Shown piece after piece: positions 2,653-48,383 of a DNA stretch of 64,000 nt. Numbering within the stretch: the first letter of the stretch is position 1; the number at the start of each line of letters is the position of its first letter. The stretch is from positions 2,356,001-2,420,000 of the forward strand of contig OZ374565.1 of NCBI GenBank assembly GCA_977862235.1, read 5' to 3'. This stretch comes from Dudresnaya verticillata. Lineage: Eukaryota. Below the pieces are notes generated by a model, which saw nothing but the letters and a program-made list of their open reading frames with translations, was not told the DNA's origin and did not search any database. The translations under genes were made by a program, and so were the position numbers.

Positions 2653-2698
2653 AAGATAAGTCAGTGGGGCCCGGGCAAATTTCAAGGTGAGGGATCAC
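2653..2698 (+). promoter_or_regulatory. 5S internal-control-region mimic (box A + box C) in element 5' UTR, copy 1
   Basis: AAGATAAGTC (2653-2662) equals 5S nt 51-60 and AGGTGAGGGATCAC (2685-2698) equals 5S nt 83-96. The starts are 32 bp apart in both. Function is inferred. Confidence 0.65.
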
Positions 2699-6623: not shown

Positions 6624-7712
6624 TTTTATTTTTTTGCACCTCATTCCTTCCTCCCCGCCGCCCTCTGCGTACATTGCTGCCTTGCATACCTCTCCCACAG
6701 AATCCCCGACCCACTGCCTCTGTACAGCGTATTCTTTTCACTCGCACTTTTCCCCTTTTCTTGTAAGTGGGAGGGAGTCTGAGAGTGTTTGCAGGTGTCT
6801 AGGGGTTGTTTAGGGTTAGGTCTAGGGTTAGTTTGGTTACTGTGGTACGCGAGGGGCATGATATTGGGAGGGTAAAGGGTCTAGTGTTGGTGCATGGAAT
6901 GAATCATGGTGGTGGAAGGAATGGATCAGTGTGGTGGATGAATTGGATTTAGGGACATAGAATTGGATTAGATTTAGTACCCAGAAGATTGGATCAAGGA
7001 TCACCACAATCGGATCAAGTCTGGTGGCTGGGGTGAGGGTGGCTTGGACGTTTGTGCTCATAACTTTGGAACGGCTGGGGCTAGGGAGCTGCTCAGTAGC
7101 TGAATCGAAGCGTCTCGTTGCTGCGCATTGCGTAGCGCTCTTACCCTCCTAAATCGACTTTTTGGCGCGTTTCTATGGTGCAAAACGTCCCCACGGGCCG
7201 TCGGCAGCTTTTGAGCAGATCAAATAGGGGTTTGGGGCATGTATGGTTATGGGTGGGTTTAGGGGTGTTAGGGATGTGTCATTTTAACGCGTTTAGGAGT
7301 GTAGGGAGTGGGAATGAAAGTAGTAAGGATGAGGAAATGGAAAGGGAAGGATGAGAAAGTATAGTACAATGCAGTAATACAAATCACGGAATGCATCAGG
7401 TTGGGATCCAATAAGGGTGGATGGATTGGATCAACGGAAGTCAAGGCGTTATAGGATTGGATCTAGGGGCTCTGTAAATTAGATTGGGTGCTGGTTTCAT
7501 TGAACCAAGGGGTCAGAACGTCCATGAGCTGGTTGACTGTATTTATATTGAATCCTGCGTTTAGAGTAAATGGTATACGGTTATGGGTCATTACTTTAAT
7601 GCTCCACGTGTACACTACAGTCGGATGGACATTGGACGCAGGAGTCTTTAGTCGATGACGGGGAGTGCAGTTGATGGCGCATTTAAATAGGGGTACGGCG
7701 GGAACAGCAAGC

Positions 7713-7832: not shown

Positions 7833-8921
7833 TTTTATTTTTTTGCACCTCATTCCTTCCTCCCCGCCGCCCTCTGCGTACATTGCTGCCTTGCATACCT
7901 CTCCCACAGAATCCCCGACCCACTGCCTCTGTACAGCGTATTCTTTTCACTCGCACTTTTCCCCTTTTCTTGTAAGTGGGAGGGAGTCTGAGAGTGTTTG
8001 CAGGTGTCTAGGGGTTGTTTAGGGTTAGGTCTAGGGTTAGTTTGGTTACTGTGGTACGCGAGGGGCATGATATTGGGAGGGTAAAGGGTCTAGTGTTGGT
8101 GCATGGAATGAATCATGGTGGTGGAAGGAATGGATCAGTGTGGTGGATGAATTGGATTTAGGGACATAGAATTGGATTAGATTTAGTACCCAGAAGATTG
8201 GATCAAGGATCACCACAATCGGATCAAGTCTGGTGGCTGGGGTGAGGGTGGCTTGGACGTTTGTGCTCATAACTTTGGAACGGCTGGGGCTAGGGAGCTG
8301 CTCAGTAGCTGAATCGAAGCGTCTCGTTGCTGCGCATTGCGTAGCGCTCTTACCCTCCTAAATCGACTTTTTGGCGCGTTTCTATGGTGCAAAACGTCCC
8401 CACGGGCCGTCGGCAGCTTTTGAGCAGATCAAATAGGGGTTTGGGGCATGTATGGTTATGGGTGGGTTTAGGGGTGTTAGGGATGTGTCATTTTAACGCG
8501 TTTAGGAGTGTAGGGAGTGGGAATGAAAGTAGTAAGGATGAGGAAATGGAAAGGGAAGGATGAGAAAGTATAGTACAATGCAGTAATACAAATCACGGAA
8601 TGCATCAGGTTGGGATCCAATAAGGGTGGATGGATTGGATCAACGGAAGTCAAGGCGTTATAGGATTGGATCTAGGGGCTCTGTAAATTAGATTGGGTGC
8701 TGGTTTCATTGAACCAAGGGGTCAGAACGTCCATGAGCTGGTTGACTGTATTTATATTGAATCCTGCGTTTAGAGTAAATGGTATACGGTTATGGGTCAT
8801 TACTTTAATGCTCCACGTGTACACTACAGTCGGATGGACATTGGACGCAGGAGTCTTTAGTCGATGACGGGGAGTGCAGTTGATGGCGCATTTAAATAGG
8901 GGTACGGCGGGAACAGCAAGC

Positions 8922-16295: not shown

Positions 16296-17384
16296 TTTTA
16301 TTTTTTTGCACCTCATTCCTTCCTCCCCGCCGCCCTCTGCGTACATTGCTGCCTTGCATACCTCTCCCACAGAATCCCCGACCCACTGCCTCTGTACAGC
16401 GTATTCTTTTCACTCGCACTTTTCCCCTTTTCTTGTAAGTGGGAGGGAGTCTGAGAGTGTTTGCAGGTGTCTAGGGGTTGTTTAGGGTTAGGTCTAGGGT
16501 TAGTTTGGTTACTGTGGTACGCGAGGGGCATGATATTGGGAGGGTAAAGGGTCTAGTGTTGGTGCATGGAATGAATCATGGTGGTGGAAGGAATGGATCA
16601 GTGTGGTGGATGAATTGGATTTAGGGACATAGAATTGGATTAGATTTAGTACCCAGAAGATTGGATCAAGGATCACCACAATCGGATCAAGTCTGGTGGC
16701 TGGGGTGAGGGTGGCTTGGACGTTTGTGCTCATAACTTTGGAACGGCTGGGGCTAGGGAGCTGCTCAGTAGCTGAATCGAAGCGTCTCGTTGCTGCGCAT
16801 TGCGTAGCGCTCTTACCCTCCTAAATCGACTTTTTGGCGCGTTTCTATGGTGCAAAACGTCCCCACGGGCCGTCGGCAGCTTTTGAGCAGATCAAATAGG
16901 GGTTTGGGGCATGTATGGTTATGGGTGGGTTTAGGGGTGTTAGGGATGTGTCATTTTAACGCGTTTAGGAGTGTAGGGAGTGGGAATGAAAGTAGTAAGG
17001 ATGAGGAAATGGAAAGGGAAGGATGAGAAAGTATAGTACAATGCAGTAATACAAATCACGGAATGCATCAGGTTGGGATCCAATAAGGGTGGATGGATTG
17101 GATCAACGGAAGTCAAGGCGTTATAGGATTGGATCTAGGGGCTCTGTAAATTAGATTGGGTGCTGGTTTCATTGAACCAAGGGGTCAGAACGTCCATGAG
17201 CTGGTTGACTGTATTTATATTGAATCCTGCGTTTAGAGTAAATGGTATACGGTTATGGGTCATTACTTTAATGCTCCACGTGTACACTACAGTCGGATGG
17301 ACATTGGACGCAGGAGTCTTTAGTCGATGACGGGGAGTGCAGTTGATGGCGCATTTAAATAGGGGTACGGCGGGAACAGCAAGC

Positions 17385-17473
17385 ACATTCGGCCATACTA
17401 CGCAGACATGCTCCGTATCCCATCCCGAACTGCGAAGATAAGTCTCGTCAGGCTGGTTTAGTACTGAGGTGAG
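17385..17473 (+). pseudogene. 5' fragment (nt 1-89) of the 5S gene interrupted by element copy 2
   Basis: Matches 5S through ...agtactgaggtgag, then switches to element sequence ttcaactttataacagg. Confidence 0.95.
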
Positions 17474-17574
17474 TTCAACTTTATAACAGGTGACCATATT
17501 CTAATATTTGTCGACGTACAATCTACTGTAGTATCACAACAAAGTTAAACCCCAACTCAAAACAACCTGCACAT

Positions 17575-20500
17575 CTACACCTCCTGTTGGATCCCTTCCA
17601 TCAGGCACTTGACGTTGTTCTGCACCAGTCGCGCCGCGTGCCTGTGGAACAGAGCCGCTCGCGAAACACCGCGAGTTACCATGGCCCGAGAAGCCACGGT
17701 ATCCGCCAACTCTTGCATATACTTGTGCGCCTCCGGGTGCCAGCCACCTAGTGTGGTCATCGGCACCGGCACAAGCCTTGCCCCCGGTCCGGCAGCCTGG
17801 ATGAAGCCACGGTAAGTCCGCACCTTGTCAGCGTGGGCGTTCTTCAGCGTCCCTTGCGGGTTTGTTATGCAGCTGAGAATGCGTTGTTCTGACGACAGTG
17901 GATGACTGATTGTGACGTCCAGGTAGTCCGTTCCTCCTTCTGTTCCAAGCGCCTTGATGTCCGGCCGATCCAAGTGAGCCCCCACAGGGCGGGGCTCCAC
18001 AATCGGGGTGCGTGTCGCACGTTTCAGATCCGAAGCCAGCAGACGAACCTGAGAGTCGTGGCGCCACGACCGAGGAGATCCGCTGTTCCGCATGCCGTTC
18101 GGACAAATCAGCAGATGGTCGCCGTGAACATCCATCATCTTCTTGCACCCGGCCCGAGGACACTCCGTGTCGGGTTCCAGCAGTGGAATCCGACAGTAGA
18201 ATCGAAGCCATACGCGGTAGTCCCGATCCGCAATGTACGTCTTCATGCCTGGTGCCGGCTGGCACTTGAGCCAGTCCTTGGCGCCCGGCACGCCAAGGGA
18301 AGCTCGGAAAGCTTGCGTCCGCCTGTCCCCGAGCGGCAGCTCGGCTTGCACTTTCTTCAGAACCAACCGCGTCAAGTCCCGCTGGCGCGGGCACTCGTCG
18401 CTGTCGATCTTCTCCAGGTCCAGGGCATCCTCACTATGGCACTTGGCGCTCCAGTCTTCGTGCGCTTCTACTGCAAAAGGATCGTCAGAAAGAGCAGTGT
18501 TCACAGAAGCGGGTAAGATAGAACGCAGTAAGTTGCGGGTCAGTGAAAGGGACGCCAAAAACGCGCTCGAGTTCATGTCGCCAGCTCCCGAAATACCGAT
18601 TCCGAAGCTGGGCTCTTTCGTGCGCAGGGGAAGCTGAAGTTCGCGGAAGGTGTCCCTCGGTAGGACTCCTCCCACGAGCTTGCGCATGCAAGCCTCAATC
18701 TTCTGGTCGAAGAGCTCGGCGCCCTTTGCCGTGGCGGATGATGGAACTACTCGCAGCAGGTAGTTCAGCCGGCAGACTCCGGCACAGTTGCGGAGTAGAG
18801 TGATGGCCACGTGTAGGTCTTCTAGTCCCGAAATTGCGTCCAGCAGGGGCTGGATGGACTCGACATGGCCATTCACGCTCTCCTCCATGTAGTTCTGCGT
18901 TCCAATCGGAGCCTGAAGTACTGTAGTGCCTTCTCCGTAGCTCTGCCCAAGATCCGACGGGTAGGCAGCGCAGTCTTCTGGGTCGGGTGCAGTAGGCCAC
19001 CAAACAGTACACTTGTCCATGCGCAGGTGGAAGCCATAGCCCTTAGCTTCCTCGGAGTCAAAGAAGGACAGAACCTTCCTGAGTACGGCGTGTTTCGCCA
19101 CGATGACGCCGTCGTCCAGGTAGAACAGTGACAGCAGCAAGTTGTTCGCCCCCTCCGCTTGCTGATTGCGGCCCGAGCGCCGCAGGTCGGCGGTGAGTTC
19201 CTTCAACTGTTTGATCAGTGCCTGCAGCACCAAAGCAAACAGTAACGGCCCGAGCGGGTCACCTTGCTGTACACCAGTGACACTCCGCAGTAGAGTGTCA
19301 CCCATCCACAGGTGCGGGCCCTCAGAGTCATAACAGTATCTGACCCACGGTAGTAGTTCAGGCATATGTCGGCGGACCTCCTTCATGAATGCTTTGCGGC
19401 TGACAAGGTTGAAGGCATTCTTCAAGTCCACTTGTAGCAACCCGTAGGACTTGTCATGGCCGTGAGACTTCTGCAGCTTCCGGACCGCGTGTACAATGGC
19501 TTCTGTGCCGCCCGAGGTTGCGACCCCGAGCTGAAGCGGTTCGAGGTATGCCTTGGCCTTGGGAGCGACTCTGGTCATGAGCATAGAGCTCACGAGTCGT
19601 CGGATTGTCTCTCCTACAGCAATGGGGCGGACACCGCCGGTGCGCTTCTTCAGAGCCGTGAGAGGAGCGCTGGCAATCCAAGGCGACAGCTCCGCAGGTC
19701 CTGCGCCGCTGGCCAGCACGTTGACCATTTTGGTGAGCCCGCCAAGCAGGCCCGTGTGCTCGTGAGTGGTCGGGACTGAGAGCAGTTCCTGCAGATGCGT
19801 CGGTGATAGTCCTGTTCCCCCCGAGGCCGAAGCCCGGGGGAACTTGGCCACTGCTTTTCGTACTTCGTCGGCTGTGAAAGGCACGAAGTCAGGCATGGTC
19901 GGCAGCGGTTCGGACTGGTCAAGCTCGTGGTCCGCGTCGGTTTGCGGTACGGACTGCGGGTGCTTGTCCTTCATGGACTGTATCACAGAGTCTGTGGCTG
20001 GGGCGATTCCATCAGAGTCTAGAGCTGCTGCTGCCTTACTGTAGGCGCCCTCCTTTGCAAGGCGAAGGGCTCGTGAGGCATTGATACGGCGTTGCTCTTC
20101 TGCGGAAGGCGCAGTCTGCTCACGGAATGTCGAGCCCTTCAAGGCCTCCTGCCATAGGGCGTCGTAATCCTTGAGTCCCCAGCGTCGGATTCGATCGCGG
20201 AAGGTGCCGATCGAGGACGCAGAGGTTGACGCGCTGGCCCTTGCACTCGCCGCGGGAGGATTGGACAAGACGGCTGCTGGAAAAAGCAGGAATGCAGTGA
20301 GCTCTTTGGTGGCTTCCTGAGAGTTGGTTGTGTTCGTAAAAGCCCATACCGTCTTGGACAGTGCGTCGCGCACCTCGGCGCGGACGCGAGACGGTATATG
20401 TGTGACCATAGGGATATGCGAGCGACAGATGTCTTCGACCGCCGGCAGAAGCTGCCCTCCTGGACCCCGCGCAACGGGTGGGGTTTGCGCAGTTGGTACC

Positions 20501-21063
20501 TCTCGAGTAGCAGGTACCGGTGCAGGAGGCGGCTCCTGGCTGTCCGGGATTCGTCGCGGGGCTGGCAGGATATCGTCCGCTGGCTCGCCGTCCTCGGGTT
20601 GCGTCTCCGTGACCGCGTCCAGAGCAGGAGACTGTGATGGCGCGGCTACAGTTTCTTCACGGCTCGGTGTCGTCAATTGGTTGGACGGGACGTGGGAGAA
20701 CGCCGGAGTGCGAGTAGCGGGACATGCGCTGCAATTCTTGTACCGCATACTGTACATGCCTTCACTGTTCATGCGGGAGCTACAGTGGGTGGGCATGTAC
20801 TTGTTGTGAGTCACACAGTACCATACTCCATAGTCCAGGAGCTGCTGCTTGAGAGGCTCGATGTCGGTCCTCGTCGGTGGTCCTCGCCTGCCAGGAACAT
20901 GCATCTTCCGCAGGTGCATGAGTAGCGCTTCTACAGTAGGCAGTGAGGACGACTGGCAGCCCAGAGGACAGCTGGTACTGTTTGTCGGGCGGTGTTTTGC
21001 CGAAGGCATAAAGCATGGAGAGAGCCATACCTTCGGCATGTCGGGGTGCTGCTGACCAATCAT
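17575..21063 (-). CDS. Non-LTR retrotransposon polyprotein (zinc fingers, reverse transcriptase, CCHC knuckle, restriction-like endonuclease), 1162 aa
   Basis: C2H2 finger C32-x3-C-x13-H-x4-H. RT motifs GVRPIAVGETIRRL, QLGV..GGTEAIVH, VDLKNAFN, GVQQGDPLGPLLF and YLDD. Knuckle CPRAGC-x9-H-x3-C, RHD, and endonuclease RPDI...LDVTI...KVRTY. Confidence 0.96.
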   Translation of the reverse strand: MIGQQHPDMPKVWLSPCFMPSAKHRPTNSTSCPLGCQSSSLPTVEALLMHLRKMHVPGRRGPPTRTDIEPLKQQLLDYGVWYCVTHNKYMPTHCSSRMNSEGMYSMRYKNCSACPATRTPAFSHVPSNQLTTPSREETVAAPSQSPALDAVTETQPEDGEPADDILPAPRRIPDSQEPPPAPVPATREVPTAQTPPVARGPGGQLLPAVEDICRSHIPMVTHIPSRVRAEVRDALSKTVWAFTNTTNSQEATKELTAFLLFPAAVLSNPPAASARASASTSASSIGTFRDRIRRWGLKDYDALWQEALKGSTFREQTAPSAEEQRRINASRALRLAKEGAYSKAAAALDSDGIAPATDSVIQSMKDKHPQSVPQTDADHELDQSEPLPTMPDFVPFTADEVRKAVAKFPRASASGGTGLSPTHLQELLSVPTTHEHTGLLGGLTKMVNVLASGAGPAELSPWIASAPLTALKKRTGGVRPIAVGETIRRLVSSMLMTRVAPKAKAYLEPLQLGVATSGGTEAIVHAVRKLQKSHGHDKSYGLLQVDLKNAFNLVSRKAFMKEVRRHMPELLPWVRYCYDSEGPHLWMGDTLLRSVTGVQQGDPLGPLLFALVLQALIKQLKELTADLRRSGRNQQAEGANNLLLSLFYLDDGVIVAKHAVLRKVLSFFDSEEAKGYGFHLRMDKCTVWWPTAPDPEDCAAYPSDLGQSYGEGTTVLQAPIGTQNYMEESVNGHVESIQPLLDAISGLEDLHVAITLLRNCAGVCRLNYLLRVVPSSATAKGAELFDQKIEACMRKLVGGVLPRDTFRELQLPLRTKEPSFGIGISGAGDMNSSAFLASLSLTRNLLRSILPASVNTALSDDPFAVEAHEDWSAKCHSEDALDLEKIDSDECPRQRDLTRLVLKKVQAELPLGDRRTQAFRASLGVPGAKDWLKCQPAPGMKTYIADRDYRVWLRFYCRIPLLEPDTECPRAGCKKMMDVHGDHLLICPNGMRNSGSPRSWRHDSQVRLLASDLKRATRTPIVEPRPVGAHLDRPDIKALGTEGGTDYLDVTISHPLSSEQRILSCITNPQGTLKNAHADKVRTYRGFIQAAGPGARLVPVPMTTLGGWHPEAHKYMQELADTVASRAMVTRGVSRAALFHRHAARLVQNNVKCLMEGIQQEV

Positions 21064-21803
21064 GGTTACAGCGCTGGGTAAGGTACCTGTAAAGGTCCTC
21101 TACAGTAGGTTCCCACGGGGCACAGGCCTCCTAACCGGGACGCAAGCCTGTCGTCCGTCGTCAGTCTGTTCGGGACACCTCCAGAGGGTGCTACAGGTGG
21201 CCTTGCTGCGAGATGAGGGCCTCTTCGCAGCGTAGGGCGCGAGATCGCGCACTTTGCGCACGAGCTCGCGCAAAAGGGCGCGCGTGTTAGCGTTCGTGCG
21301 CGCAGAGTTATCGGACGTTCCCTTCCCTGCCGCAGCTGAGAAGACTCTCTTCACTGCGGTCCTGTAACGCGCGGTACTTCTCGTTTGCACAAGCTCTCAA
21401 TGGGGTCGCAGAACCACCGTTTACCTGTGAGTGCCCACAGGATTTTTGGCCTCCCCCGAAGGTTCGCTGGCAGGACGTTCGCTCGATCTTAGAAGGGGTG
21501 GTTTCAAAACAGGATCCACCAGGCTTAAGCCACGTTACCCCAACTTCGACGTTGCTTGGCACGTTTCTGCGATGAGCTTGTGGGTCACGAGCCGCCTACC
21601 ACTCAAGGTCGAGGGTCTTTGGCGATTCCCACACTTGTAGGTCTCTCGGCACTTCCCGAAGGAAGATTTTACAGGACAAGCCTGGCCTTTACCAATCTGT
21701 CAGTTGAAGGGTGTGAAACCCCTCTGTCGACAGTCCACGGCAGCCTAGACAGAGTCTAGGCTGTGCCGGGTACAAGCAAAACGCGTACAGGGCCAGGGAA
21801 AGA

Positions 21804-21849
21804 AAGATAAGTCAGTGGGGCCCGGGCAAATTTCAAGGTGAGGGATCAC
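21804..21849 (+). promoter_or_regulatory. 5S internal-control-region mimic in element 5' UTR, copy 2
   Basis: Box A match 21804-21813 and box C match 21836-21849. Confidence 0.65.
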
Positions 21850-22120
21850 CTTAAAAGTAAGCGCAAAATAGGAAACGCGTGACCGTCGGCGACGACGGCG
21901 GCGGCGACGGCGGCGACGACGACGGCGTCGCGGCGCAGATCGGCGGCGCGGAAAGAGACAAAAGTAGACCGCGCTCGCCCGCCCGCGAAGGTGAAGGGCT
22001 GAAAAACCCCGCACCGACGCGCCGTCGCGCGCTCGAACAGGCGGCACCGCCGCCGAAAAGATCGGTGCAGAACTTGCTGAGAAATCTCCGAAACAAAAAA
22101 TTCGGCAGATCGCGAGGGGT

Positions 22121-22160
22121 TGAGGTGAGGGATCACTCTGGAATCGCCAGTGCCGAATGT
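22121..22160 (+). pseudogene. 3' fragment (nt 81-120) of the 5S gene interrupted by copy 2
   Basis: tgaggtgagggatcac...gccgaatgt. Confidence 0.93.
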
Positions 22161-23249
22161 TTTTATTTTTTTGCACCTCATTCCTTCCTCCCCGCCGCCC
22201 TCTGCGTACATTGCTGCCTTGCATACCTCTCCCACAGAATCCCCGACCCACTGCCTCTGTACAGCGTATTCTTTTCACTCGCACTTTTCCCCTTTTCTTG
22301 TAAGTGGGAGGGAGTCTGAGAGTGTTTGCAGGTGTCTAGGGGTTGTTTAGGGTTAGGTCTAGGGTTAGTTTGGTTACTGTGGTACGCGAGGGGCATGATA
22401 TTGGGAGGGTAAAGGGTCTAGTGTTGGTGCATGGAATGAATCATGGTGGTGGAAGGAATGGATCAGTGTGGTGGATGAATTGGATTTAGGGACATAGAAT
22501 TGGATTAGATTTAGTACCCAGAAGATTGGATCAAGGATCACCACAATCGGATCAAGTCTGGTGGCTGGGGTGAGGGTGGCTTGGACGTTTGTGCTCATAA
22601 CTTTGGAACGGCTGGGGCTAGGGAGCTGCTCAGTAGCTGAATCGAAGCGTCTCGTTGCTGCGCATTGCGTAGCGCTCTTACCCTCCTAAATCGACTTTTT
22701 GGCGCGTTTCTATGGTGCAAAACGTCCCCACGGGCCGTCGGCAGCTTTTGAGCAGATCAAATAGGGGTTTGGGGCATGTATGGTTATGGGTGGGTTTAGG
22801 GGTGTTAGGGATGTGTCATTTTAACGCGTTTAGGAGTGTAGGGAGTGGGAATGAAAGTAGTAAGGATGAGGAAATGGAAAGGGAAGGATGAGAAAGTATA
22901 GTACAATGCAGTAATACAAATCACGGAATGCATCAGGTTGGGATCCAATAAGGGTGGATGGATTGGATCAACGGAAGTCAAGGCGTTATAGGATTGGATC
23001 TAGGGGCTCTGTAAATTAGATTGGGTGCTGGTTTCATTGAACCAAGGGGTCAGAACGTCCATGAGCTGGTTGACTGTATTTATATTGAATCCTGCGTTTA
23101 GAGTAAATGGTATACGGTTATGGGTCATTACTTTAATGCTCCACGTGTACACTACAGTCGGATGGACATTGGACGCAGGAGTCTTTAGTCGATGACGGGG
23201 AGTGCAGTTGATGGCGCATTTAAATAGGGGTACGGCGGGAACAGCAAGC

Positions 23250-36637: not shown

Positions 36638-36755
36638 CTCAGTACTGAGGTGAGTTCAACTTTATAACAGGTGATCATATTCTAATATTTGTCGACGTAC
36701 AATCTACTGTAGTATCACAACAAAGTTAAACCCCAACTCAAAACAACTTGCACAT

Positions 36756-40984: not shown

Positions 40985-41030
40985 AAGATAAGTCAGTGGG
41001 GCCCGGGCAAATTTCAAGGTGAGGGATCAC
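40985..41030 (+). promoter_or_regulatory. 5S internal-control-region mimic in element 5' UTR, copy 3
   Basis: Box A match 40985-40994 and box C match 41017-41030. Confidence 0.65.
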
Positions 41031-41300
41031 CTTAAAAGTAAGCGCAAAATAGGAAACGCGTGACCGTCGGCGACGACGGCGGCGGCGACGGCGGCGACGA
41101 CGACGGCGTCGCGGCGCAGATCGGCGGCGCAAAAAGAGACAAAAGTAGACCGCGCTCGCCCGCCGTCAAACGTGAAGGGCTGAAAAACCCCGCACCGACG
41201 CGCCGTCGCGCGCTCGAACAGGCGGCACCGCCGCCGAAAAGATCGGTGCAGAACTTGCTGAGAAATCTCCGAAACAAAAAATTCGGCAGATCGCGAGCTC

Positions 41301-41345
41301 AGTACTGAGGTGAGGGATCACTCTGGAATCGCCAGTGCCGAATGT
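41301..41345 (+). pseudogene. 3' fragment (nt 76-120) of the 5S gene interrupted by copy 3
   Basis: agtactgaggtgagggatcac...gccgaatgt. Confidence 0.93.
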
Positions 41346-48062: not shown

Positions 48063-48108
48063 AAGATAAGTCAGTGGGGCCCGGGCAAATTTCAAGGTGA
48101 GGGATCAC
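48063..48108 (+). promoter_or_regulatory. 5S internal-control-region mimic in element 5' UTR, copy 4
   Basis: Box A match 48063-48072 and box C match 48095-48108. Confidence 0.65.
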
Positions 48109-48338
48109 CTTAAAAGTAAGCGCAAAATAGGAAACGCGTGACCGTCGGCGACGACGGCGGCGGCGACGGCGGCGACGACGACGGCGTCGCGGCGCAGATC
48201 GGCGGCGCGGAAAGAGACAAAAGTAGACCGCGCTCGCCCGCCCGCGAAGGTGAAGGGCTGAAAAACCCCGCACCGACGCGCCGTCGCGCGCTCGAACAGG
48301 CGGCACCGCCGCCGAAAAGATCGGTGCAGAACTTGCTC

Positions 48339-48383
48339 AGTACTGAGGTGAGGGATCACTCTGGAATCGCCAGTGCCGAATGT
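48339..48383 (+). pseudogene. 3' fragment (nt 76-120) of the 5S gene interrupted by copy 4
   Basis: agtactgaggtgagggatcac...gccgaatgt. Confidence 0.93.

Follow-up and report, generated by a model that had tools for sequence, protein, structure and literature searches.

How is a retrotransposon that lies antisense within an array of Pol III genes expressed, and how does it cope with the promoter that it destroys on landing? Both questions are raised by a 64-kb stretch of DNA (the window), in which a non-LTR retrotransposon cuts the internal promoter of 5S rRNA genes and, within its own 5' non-coding region, contains a 46-bp copy of the promoter boxes (the mimic) that faces away from its coding frame. 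To our knowledge, promoter capture is known only from small non-autonomous elements that transcribe themselves with it. If the reading preferred below is true, the backward copy of a cut promoter in a LINE would mean that a parasite uses TFIIIA for regulation or for some purpose other than transcription; the 46-bp mimic offers a directly mutable test object for this.

The 5S array and the inserted element

The window is made up of tandem 5S rDNA with a unit of 1209 bp, in which 35 full-length and three interrupted 5S rRNA genes were identified with Rfam, all on the + strand. The 35 uninterrupted units are completely identical in sequence, and every host 5S gene in the window displays the TATA-like box TTTAAATA at -31 to -24. 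Four 5S units contain an insert of 4.65 kb, one of which is cut by the window start; it is a non-LTR retrotransposon with reverse transcriptase (RT) and restriction-like endonuclease (RLE) motifs, antisense to the 5S genes. The features of the second copy and its surroundings are as follows.

17354..17361, + strand: upstream TATA-like box TTTAAATA of the host 5S gene, -31 to -24 (sequence)
17385..17473, + strand: interrupted 5S gene, nt 1-89, comprising box A, the intermediate element (IE) and one half of box C, located at the 3' end of the element
17474..22116, - strand: non-LTR retrotransposon, copy 2, followed by four untemplated bases (22117-22120)
17575..21063, - strand: single ORF of copy 2, 1162 residues (translation and motif patterns)
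22121..22161, + strand: 5S nt 81-121 at the 5' end of the element, with a complete box C and no box A
22160 and 22166: T5 and T7 terminator runs downstream of copy 2

The 1162-residue ORF displays the layout of RLE non-LTR elements, with an N-terminal C2H2 zinc finger (residues 32-55) followed by a second Cys/His motif (residues 83-114), an RT domain (PF00078, residues 472-688, YLDD, E = 1e-16), a CCHC motif (residues 968-987) and an RLE-type PD..D motif (residues 1033-1049), all except the RT domain having been located by pattern search. Its best relatives with a solved structure are R2 proteins, which match over the RT stretch only, and in the Atlas residues 15-130 matched only generic small zinc-finger-like clusters. 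Judging from its RT motifs, the element is probably CRE-like, and by the look of the 5S gene the host would be a florideophyte red alga. The ORF is intact in all three complete copies; 31 synonymous and 18 non-synonymous differences separate the copies, and the excess of pS (0.035) over pN (0.007) points to purifying selection on the element family. As an intact, apparently recently active and site-specific element with a single ORF and a 5S target, it is of interest beside R2 for genome insertion tools.

Insertion occurred after 5S nt 89 (nt 89/90), inside box C, at all three visible 3' junctions, whereas the 5' junctions differ in all four copies, with 5S resuming at nt 80, 81, 76 and 76 in copies 1-4, respectively, and bear short untemplated or palindromic additions. 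In copy 2 the target-site duplication corresponds to 5S nt 81-89. This combination of a fixed 3' junction, a variable 5' junction and a target-site duplication is that of RLE non-LTR elements and, on established knowledge, would reflect target-primed reverse transcription in which the 5S sense strand is nicked first, at nt 89/90. At the junctions (36638-36654, 41298-41309 and 48336-48347), CTC makes a 12-nt, snap-back-like palindrome from 5S nt 76-84, and copy 3 has an additional 17-nt duplicate of 5S nt 76-89 on its 3' side. The element of copy 4 is about 40 nt shorter at its 5' end. Over 17474-22078, 66 sites vary among all copies, and copies 1/3 and 2/4 represent two haplotypes with mosaic stretches, which suggests recombination or conversion among array copies. 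A home-made descriptor used without a positive control detected no HDV-like core on either strand of 21001-22500, a descriptor search likewise lacking a positive control found no hammerhead ribozyme in the element 5' region, and tRNA-type A/B boxes gave no matches in the element.

A copy of the 5S promoter boxes within the element

The mimic lies on the strand of the 5S genes and is found in each of the four copies.

2653..2698, + strand: mimic, copy 1; element incomplete, as the window starts within it; 5S resumes with nt 80 at position 2956
21754, + strand: equivalent of 5S +1, the predicted Pol III start (copy 2)
21804..21813, + strand: box A copy AAGATAAGTC, the same as nt 51-60 of the host 5S gene; the consensus box A falls at 21805-21819
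21821..21826, + strand: IE position, corresponding to 5S nt 68-73; fits the published IE consensus at 3/3 positions and keeps GG, with low information
21836..21849, + strand: box C copy (the 14-mer), the same as nt 83-96 of the host 5S gene; the consensus box C falls at 21835-21852
40985..41030, + strand: mimic, copy 3; element from 36655 to about 41297, 5S resuming at nt 76
48063..48108, + strand: mimic, copy 4; element from 43733 to about 48335, 5S resuming at nt 76

An earlier note on this DNA had reported a 10-mer identical to 5S nt 51-60 and a 14-mer identical to nt 83-96 at the native offset of 32 bp, and both were found again at 2653, 21804, 40985 and 48063. Its 4/6 match at the IE (taken as nt 67-72) is correct and the flanks are, as it stated, unlike 5S, with identity at background for nt 1-50 (9/50), nt 61-82 (6/22) and nt 97-121 (6/25). 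Both boxes share a single diagonal, with +1 at 21754, within the 5' non-coding region of the element. Since the 46 nt are identical in all four copies, these constitute one observation and provide no independent support for one another. The chance expectation, which the note had left to be computed, was assessed with dinucleotide shuffles of the whole 4647-nt element on both strands: two exact runs on one diagonal summing to at least 24 nt arose in none of 1500 shuffles, the maximum being 18. A single exact run of at least 14 nt arose in 4/1500 shuffles, which makes the 14-mer alone unusual but not extreme; given the 14-mer, shuffling of the left flank produced an exact run of at least 10 nt in the same register 6 times in 200,000, and within 3 nt of the register on either side 7 times in 40,000.

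When the consensus for box A, the IE and box C given in PMC3369914 was placed on the host 5S gene, the best fits were at nt 52 (tied with nt 47), 68 and 82. The mimic and the host gene agree at 20 of the 21 positions specified by this consensus and at 7 of the 18 free positions (Fisher p = 2.5e-4, for positions that are contiguous and hence non-independent), and all five departures of the host from the box consensus are mirrored in it (5/5). Box A, at about +50 to +64, is identical to the host at 6/6 specified and 3/9 free positions; the IE fits the consensus at 3/3 positions of nt 68-73, as it does in the host, a weak match with three specified positions only; and box C, at about +80 to +97 and natively spaced, is identical at 12/12 specified positions, with 15/18 identities across its consensus span and all three differences at free positions. 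Because specified positions and host departures both match, the mimic copies the promoter of its own host and not a generic motif. Native register, bias towards specified positions, mirrored host variants and agreement with the IE consensus together bear out the proposal that the promoter boxes were selectively retained. In the sources consulted, the outer finger triplets of TFIIIA contact boxes C and A and finger 5 contacts the IE (PMC1950542, PMC10245719); the positions of the 5S promoter boxes are also given in PMC7279448. Judged from the sequence, the mimic is real and looks selected, and would represent a case of 5S promoter capture in which both the carrier and the orientation are unusual. 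No 5S match to the mimic was found in Rfam at E up to 10, on which ground a 5S-like RNA fold was rejected; a coding role was also rejected, as no ATG-started frame inside the element spans the mimic.

A feature missed in the earlier note is that the 14-mer, which is partly self-complementary, is centred exactly on the insertion point of the element itself, with 7 nt on either side of nt 89/90. The mimic might consequently be viewed as a copy of the element's own target, bound on DNA by the element protein for autoregulation or as a decoy, in which case the 14-mer would represent the motif of the cleavage site and nt 51-60 a more distant contact of the zinc fingers, an alternative that the note had also overlooked. 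The N-terminal zinc-binding motifs of the protein would suit such a role, and R2 proteins are described as reading two spaced DNA motifs (PMC13586686). On the other hand, the same source places the 10-40 bp protected by R2 on the side joining the element 5' end, whereas in the mimic that side retains just 7 nt, and box A is located 30-39 nt away on the other, although the geometry of this clade may differ. Moreover, the retained positions track the TFIIIA consensus, the GG of the IE included, none of the four copies shows an insertion into the mimic, and no such target copy was found in two tRNA-targeting relatives (see below). We regard this alternative as quite unlikely.

The mimic could also be a passenger without present function, either a fossil 5' junction (5S nt 83-96 plus a snap-back extension) or an antisense SINE3-like head. 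The 14-mer starts where the present 5' junctions resume 5S (nt 76-81) and has been lengthened into a palindrome, just as copies 3 and 4 have snap-back palindromes at their junctions; the A-rich sequence at 22091-22100 might be the tail of a SINE, and second-strand priming through pairing of the cDNA with the upstream target is known for R2 (PMC13580325). However, a fossil junction leaves the in-register 10/10 box A (the 6/200,000 event) unexplained, and boxes that match those of the present host perfectly, next to flanks that are saturated, require ongoing or recent selection. In addition, the 14-mer serves as a junction in none of the four copies, and the putative SINE bounds do not coincide with those of the low-variation block described below, 21950-22078 containing six sites that vary among the copies. 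Such an origin without function is therefore considered very unlikely.

Variation among copies and predicted RNA structure

The mimic is embedded in a part of the 5' non-coding region that hardly varies among the copies and includes an inverted repeat.

21422..21949: low-variation block of the 5' non-coding region, containing the mimic; one variable site in 528 bp among four copies
21831..21856: inverted repeat around box C, with a 7-bp stem, a 4-nt GGGA loop and three further pairs

At the synonymous rate of the ORF, 18.7 variable sites would be expected in the block, and the longest invariant gaps in the ORF measure about 360 bp. The 81 bp around the boxes, taken alone, have no variable site against 2.9 expected, which is not significant. 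Since the block extends well beyond the boxes and coincides in part with predicted RNA structure, its low variation need not reflect the boxes, and gene conversion between copies could be an alternative cause. The predicted structure of the sense-strand RNA has a z value of -4.2 at both 21661-21780 and 21781-21900, compared with -2.6 to -3.6 for the other strand. On the - strand, a C(UUCG)G tetraloop hairpin (21652-21665) and several stacked hairpins (21661-21780) lie in the sense RNA between the mimic and the ORF and form a candidate translation or protein-binding structure.

Further short resemblances to 5S occur in the opposite sense. Positions 21620-21629 and 21646-21653 correspond to 5S nt 100-109 and 109-116 on the sense strand of the element, in swapped order (21/5000 shuffles for the two pieces, a post hoc statistic), and 22091-22108, at the element 5' end, resembles, in antisense, the terminator and 3' end of 5S, with 16/18 matching columns (14/5000 shuffles, likewise post hoc); the latter could stem from a template jump onto 5S rRNA or could pair with the 5S remnant. 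A pseudoknot of these pieces with read-through RNA as an HDV ribozyme was rejected upon inspection, as it would contain a 450-nt insert and lacks a catalytic C motif.

In the modelled sense RNA, a perfect hairpin sequesters anti-box C, and anti-box A lies in a loop, with a predicted unpaired probability of 0.8-1.0 for 8/10 nt. The antisense stretches of this RNA could in principle base-pair either with 5S rRNA or with the nicked strand of the target, serving ribosome or RNP recruitment or RNA-guided targeting, for which a single-stranded anti-box A and the additional 8-10 nt pieces at 21620-21653 and 22091-22108 would be favourable. Yet anti-box C is tied up in its hairpin, RNA pairing would not demand an exact 32-nt register and the retained positions track a DNA-binding consensus, all of which render this explanation highly improbable.

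Transcription from the mimic

The promoter boxes are on the + strand, while the ORF and the polarity of the element are on the - strand; facing away from the ORF, the mimic cannot make the template RNA of the element. It could, however, be a productive type-1 Pol III promoter, giving rise to an antisense RNA of about 410 nt, from 21754 to the 5S terminator, that would dampen or regulate the element. All three internal elements are in register, a purine occupies +1, no T4 intervenes before the terminator at 22160, the predicted RNA has a more stable fold than shuffled sequences (z -3.3), the last bases of the element are able to pair with the 5S 3' end, and the same boxes are kept for transcription by Ajax, Cassandra and SINE3. 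The opposite strand, though, folds equally well or better, and the 3' part of such an RNA would vary from copy to copy, as the four 5' junctions differ.

No TATA-like box is present upstream of the mimic where host genes have one, the segment from -35 to -21 being GC-rich (5/15 A+T). A TATA-like motif about 28 bp upstream is required for 5S transcription in Arabidopsis (PMC5887818) and an AT-rich upstream region is described as generally needed (PMC13578239), although some protists do without such a motif (PMC3369914); on sequence grounds, the missing box would lower, and not exclude, initiation at the mimic. The antisense RNA of about 400 nt suggested in the earlier note is thus left unsupported: the absence of T4 between 21754 and the 5S terminator at 22160, on which it drew, is true but uninformative, since 93.8% of 20,000 base shuffles of this stretch, which contains 12% T, are also devoid of T4, and the host-type TATA-like box is absent. 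We consider productive antisense transcription unlikely. The use of an antisense RNA as a splint templating the 5' junction was rejected because the four junctions differ.

The mimic as a proposed landing site for TFIIIA and TFIIIC

The explanation that we favour, albeit tentatively, is that the mimic is a selected landing site for TFIIIA and TFIIIC, placed head-to-head with the ORF and probably little transcribed. A TFIIIA platform replacing the site destroyed by insertion had been a fallback in the earlier note; it ranks first among the readings considered here. The element cuts box C, yet carries a correctly spaced copy of box A, the IE and box C. Host TFIIIA would bind the mimic and TFIIIC would be recruited to it, and the complex, acting as a barrier or nucleosome-free platform, may benefit Pol II expression of the element by keeping its 5' control region in open, insulated chromatin. 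The mimic would in this manner stand in for a complete Pol III promoter, presumably unattainable at the 5' junction once box C has been cut. It may have originated as a captured internal control region, the free positions of which drifted into hairpins, or as an old 5' junction to which box A was later added, the present junctions resuming at nt 76-81 and the 14-mer beginning at nt 83; both origins need selection on box A.

The landing-site interpretation is preferred because the match is non-random and in register; because retention is concentrated at the specified positions and extends to all host departures; because the spacing is exact despite an inter-box identity of 6/22, as would be expected for a multi-finger protein on double-stranded DNA; because there is no 5S RNA fold, the surrounding block varies little and the host TATA-like box is missing; and because two tRNA-targeting relatives have an undamaged Pol III promoter next to their 5' end and no internal target copy in the tRNA orientation. 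Sites at which TFIIIC is present without TFIIIB or Pol III organise chromatin (PMC11346459). Against it, Pol II might just as well be blocked by a TFIIIC complex sitting 270-315 nt within the transcribed region. Furthermore, some protists are without TFIIIA (PMC3369914), and the 5' junction already has a full box C, the sole control region in budding yeast (PMC1950542). Together, the two readings that involve TFIIIA, as a landing site or as an antisense promoter, would take about two thirds of the weight, as far as the sequence allows us to judge.

Comparison with known systems

Known ETC sites are B-box based and host-owned, in contrast to the mimic, which would be TFIIIA-dependent and owned by a retrotransposon. 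What the proposed site would share with ETC sites and tRNA-gene insulators is that a Pol III assembly-factor site acts on chromatin and not through RNA (PMC11346459).

In Cassandra, Ajax and SINE3 the three boxes have been kept and drive transcription of the elements' own RNA (PMC10853983, PMC10886601, PMC10946416). As in SINE3 and the Ajax and Cassandra TRIMs, box A, the IE and box C are kept in the window element and the flanks and inter-box bases have diverged; indeed, Ajax is described as keeping only the promoter region and Cassandra as mirroring host promoter changes (PMC10886601, PMC10853983), just as the boxes studied here mirror the host gene, with 5/5 departures in a single host. While those elements are short and non-autonomous, and their promoter makes the template RNA, the carrier in the window is an autonomous 4.65-kb LINE with an ORF of 1162 residues from which the promoter copy faces away; its inter-box bases are at background and it inserts into the very box that it has copied.

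Sequence-specific insertion into tandem 5S rRNA genes is shared with Mutsu, a 5S-specific LINE of zebrafish, and with the DNA transposon Dada-5S (PMC5340908, PMC8869645), and the accessible text of these two sources describes no promoter copy in either. The window element, with its single ORF and insertion at nt 89/90, differs from Mutsu, which contains two ORFs and integrates about 20 nt from the start of 5S. Among the RLE clades (CRE, R2, R4, NeSL/Utopia and HERO), which are presented with their targets in PMC4640811, CRE-group and other members have in common with the window element a single ORF with zinc finger, RT, CCHC and PD..D motifs, a multicopy RNA gene as target and a target-site duplication, but the window element differs in targeting a Pol III gene, in antisense. 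R2 targets 28S rDNA and has a 5' HDV-like ribozyme, unlike the window element, which targets 5S and in which the descriptor used above found no HDV-like core. The full texts searched, mostly open-access papers, describe neither an RLE element targeting 5S box C nor an autonomous LINE that contains a copy of the 5S promoter in antisense.

Relatives and a parallel in tRNA genes

Nine relative proteins share 35-56% identity with the element protein, the closest being the group of P0002, P0003 and P0006 (50-56%). A quick RT tree of 97 rows, comprising the window protein, the 80 of 88 other proteins that cover the RT core and 16 of 85 loci, places the element in a 25-row clade with an SH-aLRT of 100; this tree is midpoint-rooted, precedes completion of a careful search and is made up of relatives that are unnamed or generically named, with no named CRE, SLACS or Cnl1 reference. 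Eight loci fall in the clade, three of them with both flanks available. Two of these, L002 and L009, form a subclade of their own within it and are not sisters of the window element.

L002 lies antisense in a tRNA-Arg(ACG) gene (2303-2376 and about 7075) and L009 antisense in a tRNA-Ala(TGC) gene (2383-2454 and about 6918), both with the 3' junction after tRNA nt 8; the target-site duplication of L009 comprises about 29 nt at 90%. They possibly represent an undescribed tRNA-targeting lineage. In both, owing to the duplication, a complete tRNA gene stands head-to-head with the element 5' end, and GG follows the nick in these two as in the window element. Neither contains an internal target copy in the tRNA orientation beyond 8-9 nt, and the L002 ORF has a 13-nt match to its target in the opposite sense. 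The 5' side of the window element retains only 5S nt 76/81-121, without box A, and the mimic supplies a full box set 287 bp inside the element, facing in the same direction as the tRNA genes of L002 and L009. The geometry is the same, a parallel that rests on two old copies.

A broader proposal is that this RLE lineage depends on a head-to-head Pol III assembly complex, which members targeting tRNA genes obtain for free through the intact tRNA gene at their 5' end and which the 5S member, after moving to a cut within box C, would have rebuilt in its own 5' region as a complete TFIIIA site coevolving with the host gene, coupling retrotransposition to the availability of 5S factors. We consider this generalization doubtful. 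The support that the tRNA-targeting relatives lend to the landing site is limited in that these are only two, are old and are not sisters of the window element, and at L004, the third locus with both flanks, no Pol III gene or duplication was found. 5S was absent from all 80 metagenome loci searched by blastn/nhmmer with the gene of the window, and from the 40 of the 80 that were checked by Rfam, ARAGORN detected a tRNA in two of the 80, five further loci, from prokaryote assemblies, were either short or distant, and viral contigs searched for sister elements yielded nothing. A 17-nt 5S-like match in L018 was taken as chance, as it falls within an AT-rich local repeat.

Some additional features of the relatives were observed. 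In L002 the 183 nt after the 3' junction (2369-2551) are 73% like the first 183 nt of the element (7075-7255), and in L009 a second RT region follows (8318-8835); repeated insertion at the same tRNA site is a possible explanation for this extra sequence. Some clade members display a Ulp1-type protease domain upstream of the RT (PF02902 in P0005; about 3100-3780 in L004), as NeSL-type elements do, and the window element has no such domain. Fragments of these eukaryotic retrotransposons also appear in prokaryotic metagenome-assembled genomes (L081-L085), where they probably reflect binning contamination.
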